Source of the DNA: Candidatus Omnitrophota bacterium
GTDB lineage: Bacteria; Omnitrophota; Gorgyraeia; Gygaellales; Profunditerraquicolaceae
NCBI GenBank assembly: GCA_028716245.1
Contig: JAQUQW010000002.1
Location: forward strand, 229,346-293,345
Direction of reading: 5' to 3'
DNA: 64,000 nucleotides
Shown here: positions 29,387-51,702 of the stretch, in pieces
Layout: each line of letters begins with the position of its first letter
Position numbering within the stretch: position 1 is the first letter of the stretch
Made by a program: the position numbers and the translations under genes
Notes under the pieces: model-generated
What the model was told of the DNA's origin: nothing
What the model saw: only the letters and a program-made list of their open reading frames with translations
The model's database searches: none

Positions 29387-30652
29387 ATGGCAAAGATCAA
29401 AAAAGTTCTGGCACGGCAAATCCTGGATTCGCGCGGTAATCCCACGGTTGAGGTAGATTGCCTTCTGACAAACGGTATTTTAGGCCGCGCCGCGGTTCCC
29501 TCCGGAGCTTCTACCGGAGATAATGAGGCTTTGGAATTAAGGGATAATGATAAGACCAGGTATTTAGGTAAGGGGGTATTAAAAGCAGTTGCTAATGTGA
29601 ATACCATAATCAATCCCGCGATCAAAGGCCAGACAGCGGATTTTGCCAAGATCGATAAGCTTTTGATTAAACTGGATGGTACGGAATTTAAATCCAAACT
29701 CGGAGCAAATGCCATTCTAGGGGTTTCTATGGCAGTGGCTAAGGCCGCCGCGCTTGCTAAGAAGCAGCCTCTTTATAGATTTTTAGGCAAAGATAAGGCA
29801 AAAATCTTACCGATCCCGTTAATGAACATTTTAAACGGCGGTATGCACGCTGATAACAACCTGGATATCCAGGAGTTCATGATTATGCCCCAAGGCGCTC
29901 CCACTTTTTCCGATGCCCTGCGCCTGGCAACCGAGGTTTTTCATAATCTAAAATCAATCCTTAAATCTAAAAAACTTTCCACATCCGTCGGAGATGAGGG
30001 CGGTTTTGCTCCCAGCCTTAATTCCAATGAAGAGGCGTTAAGCTTAATCATCGAGGCGATAAAAAAAGCCGGGTATGTCCCCGGCCGCGATATTTCTTTA
30101 GCCTTGGATTGCGCTGCCAGTTCTTTCTGCAAAGACGGCAAATATACCTTTGAAGGCTCGGTGAAAACTTCCGCGGATTTAATCGCTATTTATGAAGGAT
30201 GGCTTTTGAAATACCCTATTTTGTCTATCGAAGACGGGCTCTCCGAGCATGATTGGAGCGGCTGGCAGGAGATGACCAAAAGAATCGGCGCTAAAGTACA
30301 GCTGGTGGGGGATGATATTTTTGTGACTAATCCCAAGATATTCAAAAAAGGGATTGCGGAAAATATAGGCAATGCTATACTGATTAAGGTTAATCAGATT
30401 GGCACGCTTTCGGAAACGCTTGAGACAATCGCGATTGCCAAAAAGAATAAATATAACGCTATAATTTCGCATCGTTCCGGCGAGACCGAAGACACAACTA
30501 TCGCCCAGCTGGCGGTAGCCACCGGCGTGGGCCAGATAAAAACCGGTTCTTTGTCCCGCACCGACAGGATCTGTAAATATAACGAGCTCTTAAGGATTGA
30601 AGAGGAGCTGGGTAAAAAAGCAATTTACGCGGGGAAGACTTGGAAGAGATAA
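29387..30652 (+). CDS. eno: enolase
   Basis: 421 aa; full-length match to enolase incl. SHRSGETED and IKVNQIGT motifs. Confidence 0.95.
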
Positions 30653-30934
30653 ATGCTCTCCACGCTGAGAAGGTCATTTTGGCTTTTTGGGTTCGCAGTT
30701 TTGCTGCTGGTTTTATTCCTGCCGGGTTATACAAAGCTGCAGGAATCAAGGATTAAGAATCGCAAGCTGGAAGAGAATTTCCGCAAGATGGCAGTTGAAA
30801 ACTACCTTTTGCAGGAAGAGCTCAAGCGGATTGAAAATGATCCGGTTTATCAGGAAAAGATCGCCCGGGATAAGATGGGCGTGGTAAGAAAAGGGGAGAT
30901 CCCGATTAAGATCTTCTCCGAGAAGAAAAGATAA
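30653..30934 (+). CDS. ftsB: cell division protein FtsB/DivIC (septum formation initiator)
   Basis: 93 aa, N-terminal TM + coiled-coil LQEELKRIENDPVYQEKIARDKMGVVRKGE. Confidence 0.7.
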   Translation: MLSTLRRSFWLFGFAVLLLVLFLPGYTKLQESRIKNRKLEENFRKMAVENYLLQEELKRIENDPVYQEKIARDKMGVVRKGEIPIKIFSEKKR

Positions 30935-30990
30935 AGTCTCGCTTTTTTAAAGCGATCAATGGTATAATATAGTTGTTCTTTAAAAAGTTT

Positions 30991-31287
30991 CGCGGGGTGG
31001 AGCAGCCTGGTAGCTCGCAAGGCTCAATTTTGGGCTCTTCAGCCGGTAACGGTTGAAGGATAACCTGTCAAATTCGGTGAAGCCTTAATTTGCAAAGGTA
31101 ATACCGAGCCAAGTTCGCCAATATTTGTGGTGAAAAGGTGTAGAGACTAAACGGCAGGGGCCCGCCATAGGATTTTGGCGGGTCAAGATATAGTCCAGAC
31201 TACGAATCCACTATTTGTGGAGCAGCGTAAGCTGAAGTAGCAAGCATAACCTTGAGGTCGTCCGTTCAAATCGGGCCCCCGCAACCA
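30991..31287 (+). tRNA. initiator-type tRNA-Met (anticodon CAU) interrupted by a group I intron in the anticodon loop; exons ~30991-31024 and ~31245-31287 (77 nt incl. CCA)
   Basis: Exons spliced in silico give CGCGGGGTGGAGCAGCCTGGTAGCTCGCAAGGCT|CATAACCTTGAGGTCGTCCGTTCAAATCGGGCCCCCGCAACCA, near-identical to canonical bacterial tRNA-fMet (C1:A72 mismatch, A11:U24). Confidence 0.85.
31025..31244 (+). ncRNA. group I self-splicing intron (IC3-like, Azoarcus/Anabaena tRNA-intron type)
   Basis: Contains GUGUAGAGACUAAACGGCAGGGG (P7 5'/J7-3/P3) and CAAGAUAUAGUCCAGAC (P7 3') core elements and GUCAAAUUCGG...CCGAGCCAAG segments matching the Azoarcus tRNA-Ile intron; terminal G before exon 2; P1 with U.G wobble can be drawn. 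Confidence 0.8.
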
Positions 31288-31290
31288 ACT

Positions 31291-31320
31291 AAACCCGCTT
31301 TAAAGAGCGGGTTTTTTTGT
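31291..31320 (+). terminator. rho-independent terminator after tRNA-fMet
   Basis: AAACCCGCTTTAAAGAGCGGGTTTTTTTGT. Confidence 0.75.
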
Positions 31321-31357
31321 TATTATTTTTTAAATGAAGATGGTATAATTAAAACCT

Positions 31358-32215
31358 ATGAGCCCGCAGAGAATCTTAAAAACAAAAATCGGAGAGATGT
31401 TAATCGAGCGCGGTTTGATATCCAAAGAACAGCTGTCTACGGCATTAGCGCAGCAGAGAGAAAAAGGCGGCTACCTCAGTCAGCATCTTATAGCGTTAGG
31501 TTTTGTAAGCGAGGTACATATAGCTGAGTGCCTTGCCAGCCAATATGGTTTTGCGTATCTGCCCTTAGACAGGTATCAGATTTCCCCCCAAACGTTAAAA
31601 ATTATACCATTTAAATTAATTAATATTTATTCACTCCTTCCGATAGAGAAAGCAGGGAATTCTTTAGATGTAGTTATGGCTGACCCGTTGAATGAAGGTG
31701 TTATCGATATGCTTAAACATATCAGCGGCTGCGATATCGAAGTTTTTATCAGCACATACAGCCAGATAAGGCAGGCAATAGATACTTATTTTCATGCTGA
31801 AATGCAAGATACCAGCCTGGGCAGGCTTGATGCGGTGGAATTGATCAAGGAGGATATGCTTGAGTCATTCATCCAGGTTAAAGATTACGGCAGTGGCAGG
31901 GAAAAGAGGAGATATAAGAGGAAGGATGTAGACCTGGATATGGTCTATTTCTTGCAAAACAAAAGTTATAAAGCAAAAATAAAAAATATCAGCTACGGCG
32001 GGCTTTTGTTTACCTGCGAATTATTTATACCTATAGAAAAAAATATCTACACAAATATTGTCTGTAGGATCCTTACGCAGAATGTGGATATCAGCGCCGT
32101 AGTCCAGGTGATCAGGGTGGAAAAAACAGGGGAAACCCAGTATAGCATCGCAGGTTTTTTTAATTTCATCACCGATGACGACAGGATGAAACTTACATTA
32201 TTGCTGCAGCAGTAA
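31358..32215 (+). CDS. c-di-GMP receptor candidate: MshEN/T2SSE_N-like N-domain + C-terminal PilZ domain
   Basis: Two 24-res MshEN-type motifs (KIGEMLIERGLISKEQLSTALAQQ; LSQHLIALGFVSEVHIAECLASQ); C-term RRYKRK...KIKNISYGGLLF matches PilZ RxxxR...D/NxSxxG. Confidence 0.65.
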   Translation: MSPQRILKTKIGEMLIERGLISKEQLSTALAQQREKGGYLSQHLIALGFVSEVHIAECLASQYGFAYLPLDRYQISPQTLKIIPFKLINIYSLLPIEKAGNSLDVVMADPLNEGVIDMLKHISGCDIEVFISTYSQIRQAIDTYFHAEMQDTSLGRLDAVELIKEDMLESFIQVKDYGSGREKRRYKRKDVDLDMVYFLQNKSYKAKIKNISYGGLLFTCELFIPIEKNIYTNIVCRILTQNVDISAVVQVIRVEKTGETQYSIAGFFNFITDDDRMKLTLLLQQ

Positions 32216-50670: not shown

Positions 50671-51702
50671 GTGCAGAAAACACTTAAGGAAATAGCCAAA
50701 CTTATCGGCGGACAAGTTATCGGCGACGGCGATATCCTGATTACCGGGGCCTCAGGAATTAAAGAGGCGGCTGAAGGGGAGATTACTTTCCTGGCCAATC
50801 CCAAATACAACTCGCTTATGGATAAGACCCGGGCCGCGGCGATTGTTACCTCAGCTGAGGCGCAGAAAACTACCAAGCCGGTAATCTTAATTGAAAATCC
50901 TTCTCTGGCTTTTACCAAGATTATTTCTATGTTCATGCCTGATGAAGTAGGGCATCCCAAGAACATAGATTATACCGTAGTCCTGGGCAAGGATGTTTTT
51001 TTAGGCAAAGACGTGGCTATCGGGCCTTATACGGTTATCGGCGATAATGTTGTAATAGGAGATAACGCCATAATTTACGCCGGCTGTTATATCGGCCACC
51101 ATACAAAAATAGGCGACAATACTTTAATTTATCCGCATGTTTCCATACGCGAACGCATCAGTATTGGCAGAAGCGTAATTATTCATTCCGGCACAGTCAT
51201 CGGTTCGGATGGGTTTGGATTCGCTACGATTAAGGGGCTGCACCATAAGATCCCTCAGGTGGGGACAGTTGAGATCGGCGATGATGTTGAGATCGGCGCC
51301 AATGTTACCATTGACCGGGCGCGTTTTGATAAGACGGTTATCGGCCGGGGAACTAAAATCGATAACCTTGTCCAAATTGCCCATAATGTAGTTATCGGTG
51401 AAAATTCTCTTATCGTCGCCCAGGTAGGTATATCCGGCAGCACGATTATCGGTAATAATGTGACTTTAGGCGGCCAAGCCGGTTTGGTCGGCCACATCAA
51501 TATCGGTAATAACGCCATTGTAACCGCCCAATCCGGAGTAGCAAAATCCGTTCCACCGGATACGATGGTCTCAGGCTATCCGGCCCGGCCTTTTATGACT
51601 ACGCAGAGAGCAAACGCCAGCCTTCAGAACTTACCTAAGCTATTTGATCTGGTTAAGGAATTAAAGAAAAAGATTGAAGAGCTGGAAGCTAAATTAAAAT
51701 AA
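50671..51702 (+). CDS. lpxD: UDP-3-O-acylglucosamine N-acyltransferase
   Basis: Hexapeptide-repeat left-handed beta-helix, 343 aa, C-terminal coiled-coil. Confidence 0.9.

Follow-up and report, generated by a model that had tools for sequence, protein, structure and literature searches.

A gene for the initiator tRNA, tRNA-fMet(CAU), lies on the forward strand at positions 30991-31287 of a 64-kb stretch of DNA from a Candidatus Omnitrophota bacterium (contig JAQUQW010000002.1; the whole 64,000 nucleotides (nt) are called the window below). The gene is interrupted by a group I intron of 220 nt, which is inserted after U33, between U33 and C34. It is highly probable that an initiator tRNA gene is split here by a ribozyme of the IC3 type, which would be derived from a family of mobile tRNA-fMet introns and would have lost its homing endonuclease. 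The split gene is real and probably functional.

The interrupted initiator tRNA gene

With intron detection enabled, ARAGORN reports tRNA-Met(cat) at 30991-31287 with an intron of 220 nt at exactly 31025-31244. Under default settings it finds five tRNAs in the window, none of them tRNA-Met, and the interrupted gene is missed. No second tRNA-Met gene was found within the 64-kb window by ARAGORN in default or intron mode. As called in intron mode, the 5' exon (30991-31024, forward strand, like all features of the window given below) comprises the 5' strand of the acceptor stem, the D arm and the 5' side of the anticodon stem through C32 and U33. The 3' exon (31245-31287) carries the anticodon CAU, the remainder of the anticodon arm, the T arm, the 3' strand of the acceptor stem and an encoded CCA. 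When the exons are joined, ARAGORN folds them into a 77-nt cloverleaf with anticodon CAU and the encoded CCA. Two marks of initiator tRNAs are present in the spliced form, namely the mismatch between C1 and A72 and the A11:U24 pair. Over its full length, the spliced tRNA is 89.6-90.9% identical to annotated tRNA-Met genes of E. coli, which are hit at a median of four places per genome. This number presumably reflects the initiator genes metZWV and metY.

The third mark, found in the anticodon stem, is different. In the stem CAAGG/CCUUG, G-C pairs occupy only positions 30:40 and 31:39, and 29:41 is A-U, so that three G-C pairs are not reached. The same arm occurs in at least 120 metagenomic tRNA-fMet genes that lack an intron, among them the gene at the orthologous locus of close relatives. 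Since the intron-less orthologues carry the same arm, the stem with two G-C pairs is a lineage variant and no sign of decay. Initiator features defined from E. coli are not universal.

The intervening sequence (31025-31244, 220 nt, no open reading frame (ORF)) is identified as a group I intron by Rfam, by covariation among 28 homologues and by its absence from an orthologous gene. At 31015-31220 the Rfam model Intron_gpI (RF00028) scores 76.3 bits, where the gathering score is 50 (E = 1.3e-17), and the match covers the entire model, positions 1-253 of 253. The unconstrained minimum free energy (MFE) fold of 31009-31262 reaches -93.6 kcal/mol (z = -5.27), none of 200 shuffled sequences folds as well, and the fold yields P1, P2, P3, P4, P5, P6, P8 and P9a.

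The splice sites can be placed to the nucleotide. The dinucleotide CA stands at both junctions, which leaves an ambiguity of 2 nt from the sequence alone. Only one choice of junction gives both a U at position -1 (U31024, which is U33) and a G as the last base of the intron (G31244), and by this rule the ambiguity is resolved. Several homologous introns start with CG instead of CA, which narrows it further. The boundaries are confirmed by a natural empty site: in the orthologous locus L146 the tRNA gene is uninterrupted, its 5' and 3' halves are identical to the exons of the window (77 of 77 positions), and the two alleles differ by a clean 220 nt.

Many of these points had been anticipated in an initial annotation made without database searches. 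It had proposed an initiator-type tRNA(CAU) gene split by a group I intron of about 220 nt at these same coordinates, on which Rfam and intron-enabled ARAGORN now agree, and it had described the joined exons as a 77-nt tRNA close to bacterial tRNA-fMet, with C1 opposite A72, A11:U24 and CCA. The core motifs that it quoted, GUGUAGAGACUAAACGGCAGGGG, CAAGAUAUAGUCCAGAC, GUCAAAUUCGG and CCGAGCCAAG, are all found in the window sequence. The covariance search with Intron_gpI that it had suggested as a check scored above threshold, and the unconstrained MFE fold recovered most helices. Its P1 helix with a U.G wobble and a 5' splice site after U33, as well as its terminal G, hold in the alignment described below. 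The duplicated CA was correctly noted, and the uncertainty of up to 2 nt that it drew from this has been removed. The two-G-C anticodon stem was likewise described correctly, but it loses its weight as a warning sign with the many intron-less tRNA-fMet genes that share it.

Secondary structure of the intron

A P1-P9 model was drawn by hand, guided by the Rfam alignment, and then mapped onto a MAFFT alignment (A1) of 28 homologous precursors, which consist of 27 sequences from our scans and the published Omnitrophota sequence. Across A1, 92.1% of the cells of the model form standard pairs, compared with 29-43% when the 3' partners are slid by 1-3 columns. Compensatory changes on both sides occur at 38 of the 67 pairs. 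The covariation score is 0.412 against 0.176 after shuffling, and none of 500 shuffles reaches the observed values. Such changes are seen in P2, P3, P5, P6, P8, P9, P9a and P9b, and P7 and the center of P1 do not vary.

P1 (31021-31036) is formed by 31021-31026 (GGCU↓CA, the arrow marking the splice site) and 31031-31036 (UGGGCU) around the loop AUUU; it appears in the MFE fold, and 96.4% of its cells are paired. The 5' splice site follows U31024, and the wobble U31024.G31033 is invariant in 28 of 28 sequences, as are both flanking C-G pairs. The register of P1 in the Rfam alignment was rejected, since it contains two non-standard pairs and covariation supports the register given here. P2 (31037-31058) is a hairpin of 9 bp, all of which change on both sides, and is closed by a GUAA tetraloop of the GNRA type (31046-31049). 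P3 pairs 31064-31069 with 31153-31158, with 100% of cells paired and compensatory changes at three of six pairs. P4 (31074-31079 with 31102-31107, 100% paired) encloses P5 (31083-31086 with 31095-31098, compensatory changes at three of four pairs), as indicated by the Rfam alignment and covariation, and the core segments GUCAAAUUCGG and CCGAGCCAAG fall within this region (31074-31107). P6 (31108-31139) consists of two invariant basal pairs (31108-31109 with 31138-31139) and a distal stem (31114-31120 with 31128-31134) in which seven of seven pairs change on both sides.

The 5' strand of P7 (31143-31149) is made up of G31143, a bulged A31144 and G31145-A31149. It pairs with 31191-31196, all six pairs being invariant in 28 of 28 sequences, and together with P3 this helix makes a pseudoknot. 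By analogy to other introns of group I, P7 should hold the guanosine-binding site. The P8 hairpin (31160-31183; 31160-31167 with 31176-31183) is present in the MFE fold and shows compensatory changes at seven of eight pairs; 79% of its cells pair in the MAFFT alignment, where the length of this region is variable. J8/7 (CAAGAUA, 31184-31190) and the 3' strand of P7 (UAGUCC, 31191-31196) agree with the Rfam consensus AAGAUAUAGUC, and their positions are invariant or almost so in A1. The P9 domain (31200-31240) has a basal P9 helix (31200-31203 with 31237-31240, 98% paired) which encloses P9a (31207-31211 with 31217-31221, compensatory changes at five of five pairs) and P9b (31223-31226 with 31231-31234, 100% paired), the latter capped by a GUAA tetraloop (31227-31230). 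The intron ends at G31244 (omega G), an invariant column of A1 (G236), and the 3' splice site lies directly after it. The loops of P2 and P9b remain GNRA across A1. In Azoarcus-type introns, such loops of P2 and P9b are expected to make tetraloop contacts. Altogether, the intron shows features of the IC3 type, with a compact core that lacks P5abc, GNRA tetraloops capping P2 and P9, and typical P4, P6 and P7 motifs.

The locus and its expression signals

Upstream of the tRNA gene lie an enolase gene (29387-30652) and an FtsB-like gene (30653-30934). A probable promoter with the extended -10 motif TGGTATAAT is found at 30960-30968, some 22 nt before the tRNA begins. The motif recurs at approximately 31343-31351, ahead of the next gene (31358-32215), and may represent a local promoter consensus. 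A consensus scan also gave an overlapping weak promoter site, TTTAAA-16-TATAGT, at 30946-30973. Downstream of the tRNA, a terminator scan found a terminator-like hairpin of 10 pairs, five of them G-C, followed by a T run (31291-31321, with the hairpin placed at 31291-31314). Because of the -10 motif on one side and this hairpin on the other, we infer that the tRNA-fMet gene is its own transcription unit. Judging from its translation, the product of the downstream gene would be a GspE-N/PilZ-like protein.

The locus is shared with other Omnitrophota. Candidatus Omnitrophica bacterium UBA6233 (locus L112) is syntenic with the window: its enolase is 83% identical, and its FtsB, FtsH-like and 897-amino-acid genes also match. 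It carries the same interrupted tRNA gene, with an intron that is 86-89% identical to that of the window (86% over the core). The arrangement enolase-ftsB-tRNA-fMet is also found in L065 and L067, both Omnitrophota. This synteny places the window in an Omnitrophota genome. Elsewhere in the window, the sole tandem repeat is at 51268-51306 (18-nt unit GTTGAGATCGGCGACAAT, 2.2 copies, 85% matches) and is probably trivial.

A homing endonuclease in relatives and its loss

Nine related introns at position 33/34 of tRNA-fMet genes (loci L067:3750-4426, L033:296-961, L111:1914-2585, L012:2571-3243, L090:3328-3992, L082:5966-6647, L076:1852-2516 on the reverse strand, L099:965-1639 and L073:1074-1737) are 630-648 nt long. 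Each has about 420 nt more than the window intron, and an ORF of 145-165 amino acids starts from its third nucleotide. Their hosts are Omnitrophota, Planctomycetia, Patescibacteria and metagenome-assembled genomes without a lineage, and L067 is one of the syntenic Omnitrophota. The ORF product matches the protein of PDB entry 2OST with E = 1.3e-43 and the Pfam family PF11645 (PDDEXK_5) with 143-153 bits. The PDB title of 2OST is "putative endonuclease"; we take this protein to be I-Ssp6803I, which is consistent with the reference list of a 2012 review. Judged by these matches, the nine introns encode a homologue of the I-Ssp6803I-type PD-(D/E)XK homing endonuclease, outside cyanobacteria.

The ORF takes up the P1 loop and stops inside P2 or shortly beyond it, and its final codons double as the 3' strand of P1 and as P2. 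For example, the stop codon of the L033 ORF is the UAA of the GUAA loop of P2. Remnants of the ORF are found in other copies. L112 retains its first and last parts around an internal deletion of about 370-380 nt, and L065 and L009 retain its start, ATGGACAC. The window intron has no endonuclease ORF. The part in the P1 loop is entirely gone, and only the part needed by the ribozyme, the 3' strand of P1 and P2, is kept. By comparison with these relatives, the window intron appears to be an ORF-less derivative, which belongs to the ribozyme lineage and would not be an autonomous mobile element.

Empty sites at the orthologous locus

A search of metagenomes for an uninterrupted allele carrying the exact anticodon arm of the window gene gave at least 120 loci, of which at least a dozen are syntenic Omnitrophota loci with the order enolase-ftsB-tRNA-fMet (L146, L227, L225, L153, L162, L135, L177, L207, L238, L234 and L127 among them). 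The closest relative among the matches listed is L146 (contig Ga0265297_10000399, reverse strand, tRNA at about 845), in which enolase, FtsB and the FtsH-like protein show 91, 92 and 88% amino-acid identity, respectively, to those of the window. Because the L146 tRNA is identical at all 77 positions, the exons of the split gene share the constraint of an uninterrupted gene.

In a neighbor-joining tree of enolase, occupied and empty loci are interleaved: the window (occupied) goes with L146 (empty), L112 (occupied) with L162 (empty), and L032 (occupied) with L127 (empty). This implies repeated gain or loss. Intron identity and enolase identity are moderately correlated over 66 pairs that are not independent of each other (Spearman 0.38, Pearson 0.47), and, among the matches listed, the closest intron, that of L112, resides in the closest intron-bearing host. 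These patterns are to be read with a biased sampling in mind, in which one scan was confined to loci with the intron and the other to loci without it that have the exact anticodon arm. The pattern can be accommodated by a homing cycle in which the intron invades, its endonuclease decays and the intron is finally lost with precision.

Distribution of related tRNA introns

When 185,579 species genomes were searched for an Azoarcus-type core pattern, built to fit both the window sequence and the Azoarcus sequence, at least 120 loci were recovered, to which lineages were assigned by record title. The matches listed span Betaproteobacteria, Omnitrophota, Patescibacteria, Planctomycetia, Chloroflexi/Anaerolineae, Bdellovibrionales, Rhodothermales, Vibrio, Enterovibrio, Nitrospira and others. 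Locus classes were assigned by a filtered enumeration of splice-site pairs together with motif searches; the unfiltered enumeration was very noisy, and a strict regular expression recovered 10 loci. On this basis, the matches listed comprise 33 tRNA(CAU) genes with an intron at 33/34 (window included), 28 tRNA(CAU) genes with an intron at 36/37, mostly in Betaproteobacteria, 29 of other classes, mostly tRNA-Arg(UCU/CCU) at 36/37, and 31 without class assignment. The 36/37 class is what we take to be the Azoarcus tRNA-Ile type, in which CAU stands at the end of the 5' exon. Besides the window, 26 of the matches listed are initiator-type 33/34 loci, namely 11 from Omnitrophota, seven from Patescibacteria, four from Planctomycetia/Planctomycetales, one from Nitrospira and three without a lineage in the record title.

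Acceptor stems of the GGGCC/GGCCC type mark another class of tRNA(CAU) genes, which bears the same intron family at 33/34 and is distinct from the 28 loci with the Azoarcus-type insertion at 36/37. It includes L015, L026, L087, L115 and L116 from Accumulibacter/Rhodocyclales, L028 and L097 from Saccharimonas/Saccharimonadales, and L029, L041, L046, L050, L057, L062, L086 and L102. These genes probably encode tRNA-Ile2 or elongator tRNA-Met.

The core pattern was also found in 72 viral contigs of IMG/VR (L241-L312). About 15 of them have it in tRNA(CAU) genes at 33/34 or 36/37 and a few in other tRNAs, and 35 of the 72 have no tRNA at the site, where the cores may sit in protein-coding or other hosts. 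A phage source of the window intron found no support, as these viral copies are only about 70% identical to it over the core and none is close.

Interrupted genes of this kind are easily lost in annotation. In intron mode, ARAGORN frequently misplaces the two splice sites by 3 nt, which leads to calls of tRNA-Leu(CAA) or tRNA-Leu(UAA); the initiator genes mis-registered in this way include L018, L032, L053, L112 and L118. Default settings miss such genes altogether. For these two reasons, genomes of Omnitrophota and similar bacteria can appear to be without an initiator tRNA, which is a pitfall for annotation.

Splicing pathway, origin and alternative explanations

The splicing of the window precursor can be pictured along the lines of established group I chemistry. 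The precursor would fold into P1-P9, with the GNRA loops L2 and L9b available for tertiary contacts of the Azoarcus type. A free guanosine nucleotide bound at P7 would attack the bond after U31024, which is marked by the U.G wobble of P1. The terminal G31244 would next take the same site in P7, and the freed 3'-OH of U33 would attack the bond after G31244, giving the 77-nt tRNA with the anticodon loop CUCAUAA. Ordinary end-processing would then finish the tRNA. As for its origin, the intron would be an endonuclease-less derivative of a family of mobile tRNA-fMet introns initially reported from Synechocystis. Lacking the endonuclease, it would be unable to home by itself and would persist because it splices, and its precise loss would be possible, to judge from close relatives whose orthologous sites are empty. 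The idea that GTP-dependent splicing of the initiator tRNA serves as a regulatory device was dropped, since nothing in the data bears on it.

Several points weigh against this account. Splicing itself is read from conservation, the promoter is recognized by its motif, and the assignment to the Azoarcus-like IC3 type, though probable, borrows its label from the published classification of a homologue. A search by eye for a P10 that would join the 3' exon to the P1 loop found nothing convincing. With two consecutive G-C pairs in place of three, the anticodon stem departs from the E. coli initiator paradigm, a departure that it has in common with the intron-less orthologues. Finally, the view covers 64 kb, and a second, uninterrupted tRNA-fMet gene may lie elsewhere in the genome, which would relax the need for efficient splicing. 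A rival reading is that the intron is a splicing-dead relic in a tRNA pseudogene and that the cell relies on another initiator gene. The loss of the endonuclease gene, a form of decay for a mobile element, and the missing G29-C41 pair would suit such a relic, and another initiator gene may lie beyond the window. However, the core is intact, with the U.G pair, P7, J8/7 and the terminal G all matching columns that are invariant in the 28 homologues, and RF00028 scores well over threshold across the whole model. The exons have stayed identical to those of L146 while the flanking DNA and the neighboring proteins have diverged, the latter to about 88-92% amino-acid identity. A terminator-like hairpin also follows the tRNA gene directly, and no other tRNA-Met gene is present within the window. 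A relic is thus very unlikely. Even less credit is due to the idea that the host gene encodes elongator tRNA-Met or the lysidine-modified tRNA-Ile2(CAU). It is true that the CAU anticodon is common to all three tRNA types, that tRNA(CAU) genes of the GGGCC/GGCCC type bear the same intron family at 33/34, and that the published Omnitrophota orthologue (GCF_004102945.1) is called Ile2 in the tFind column of Table S5 (PMC13011429). The same study, however, goes by the best intron-less homologue of this orthologue and classes it as fMet (PMC13011429), and the window gene has the C1 and A72 mismatch, A11:U24, and the G30-C40 and G31-C39 pairs, along with 90-91% identity to E. coli genes present at four copies per genome.

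With an initiator tRNA gene and an IC3-type ribozyme as the preferred reading, the history of the intron can be considered. We lean toward the view that one Omnitrophota locus, enolase-ftsB-tRNA-fMet, preserves every stage of the homing cycle and that the element also resides in initiator tRNAs of Planctomycetia, Patescibacteria and Nitrospira. The stages would be an intact endonuclease in L067, remnants in L112, L065 and L009, an ORF-free ribozyme in the window, and an empty site in L146 and others. How the window lineage came by its copy is a separate matter. It may have gained the intron recently by homing, followed by loss of the ORF, or it may have inherited the intron from an ancestor of the Omnitrophota clade in which many losses took place. 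For recent gain speak the three nearest syntenic relatives of the window among the matches listed (L146, L227 and L225), which are all intron-less, and the endonuclease-bearing copies at the same locus within the phylum, such as L067; two gains would also be more parsimonious than four or five precise losses. Vertical descent, on the other hand, predicts the observed correlation between intron and enolase identities and the presence of the closest intron (L112, 86% over the core) in the closest intron-bearing host. Furthermore, nothing of the 5' end of the ORF is left in the window copy, which speaks for a long period since its loss, and the contrast of occupied and empty loci is drawn from two scans that each chose one intron state. 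Recent gain is a possibility to be held tentatively, and somewhat doubtful.

Relation to known introns and implications

The window intron has well-documented counterparts. The initial annotation had held that group I introns in tRNA genes are known mainly from cyanobacteria, plastids and a few proteobacteria, a picture that is outdated: a 2026 survey in mSystems found 333 of them in 18 phyla, Omnitrophota included, among 4,934 complete genomes (PMC13011429). It was right that the insertion site differs from that of tRNA-Leu, yet the site is not unusual, since 33/34 in tRNA-fMet is a well-characterized group I insertion site (PMC13011429). The Azoarcus/IC3-like organization that it had proposed is upheld by the compact core, the GNRA loops and the classification of a homologue as IC3 (PMC13011429). 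It has also been reported that group I introns hide tRNA-fMet or tRNA-Ile2 genes in 36 genomes, and that study cites tRNA-fMet introns of Gloeobacter and Synechocystis (PMC8450103). The closest published case is the fMet(CAT) 33/34 IC3 intron of the Omnitrophota genome GCF_004102945.1, 252 nt long (PMC13011429, Table S5). It shares with the window the phylum, the gene, the insertion site, an identical 34-nt 5' exon and the lack of an ORF, and it has homologous core segments (GUCAAAUUCGGUGAAGCC, CCGAGCCAAG, GGUGUAGAGACUA and AUAGUCC) and the P2 hairpin CCGGUAACGG. It differs in having only about 69% identity over the core and in its greater length (252 nt vs 220 nt), which is mainly due to a longer P6.

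The Azoarcus sp. BH72 tRNA-Ile(CAU) intron (IC3) is a crystallized model ribozyme. It resembles the window intron in its compact size of about 200-220 nt, the absence of P5abc and the GNRA loops on P2 and P9. The P4, P6 and J6/7-P7 motifs are nearly identical, in a comparison for which the search pattern was fitted to both sequences. We take the Azoarcus intron to lie at 36/37 of a tRNA-Ile2 gene with a 5' exon ending in CAU, whereas the window intron lies at 33/34 of an initiator gene; because of this difference in insertion site, P1 and the internal guide sequence differ. The tRNA-Leu(UAA) intron of cyanobacteria and plastids is another group I intron of a tRNA anticodon loop, and its splicing likewise relies on a U.G wobble in P1. 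Its Anabaena representative presumably has different P4 and P6 sequences and would not match the core pattern, and we know of no I-Ssp6803I-family endonuclease associated with the tRNA-Leu(UAA) intron. Unlike the window intron, it is inserted at 34/35 (PMC13011429).

The relative that bears most on the origin of the window intron is the tRNA-fMet intron of Synechocystis sp. PCC 6803. Biniszkiewicz et al. are said to have described this group I intron in 1994. Its length of 655 nt compares with 630-648 nt in the nine endonuclease-bearing relatives of the window intron. It occupies the same site, 33/34, in the same host gene (PMC13011429), and I-Ssp6803I is encoded within it (PMC1995217). The window copy differs in having no endonuclease gene and in its host, which belongs to Omnitrophota and is not a cyanobacterium. 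According to the 2012 review, I-Ssp6803I is "generally encoded in cyanobacteria", and in the 2026 survey its occurrence in tRNA-fMet was confined to Cyanobacteriota (PMC13011429).

Since the kind of intron, its insertion site and even the phylum are already on record, the window intron is a further example, and in itself it does not change the existing knowledge of group I introns or tRNA genes. The wider picture around it may say more. If the homing-cycle interpretation of the Omnitrophota locus is true, an element deemed cyanobacterial has moved between distant phyla by way of the nearly universal anticodon arm of tRNA-fMet. The series in which the endonuclease is present, decaying or absent, and the intron itself absent, at one syntenic locus could then be used to study how such introns persist and disappear.

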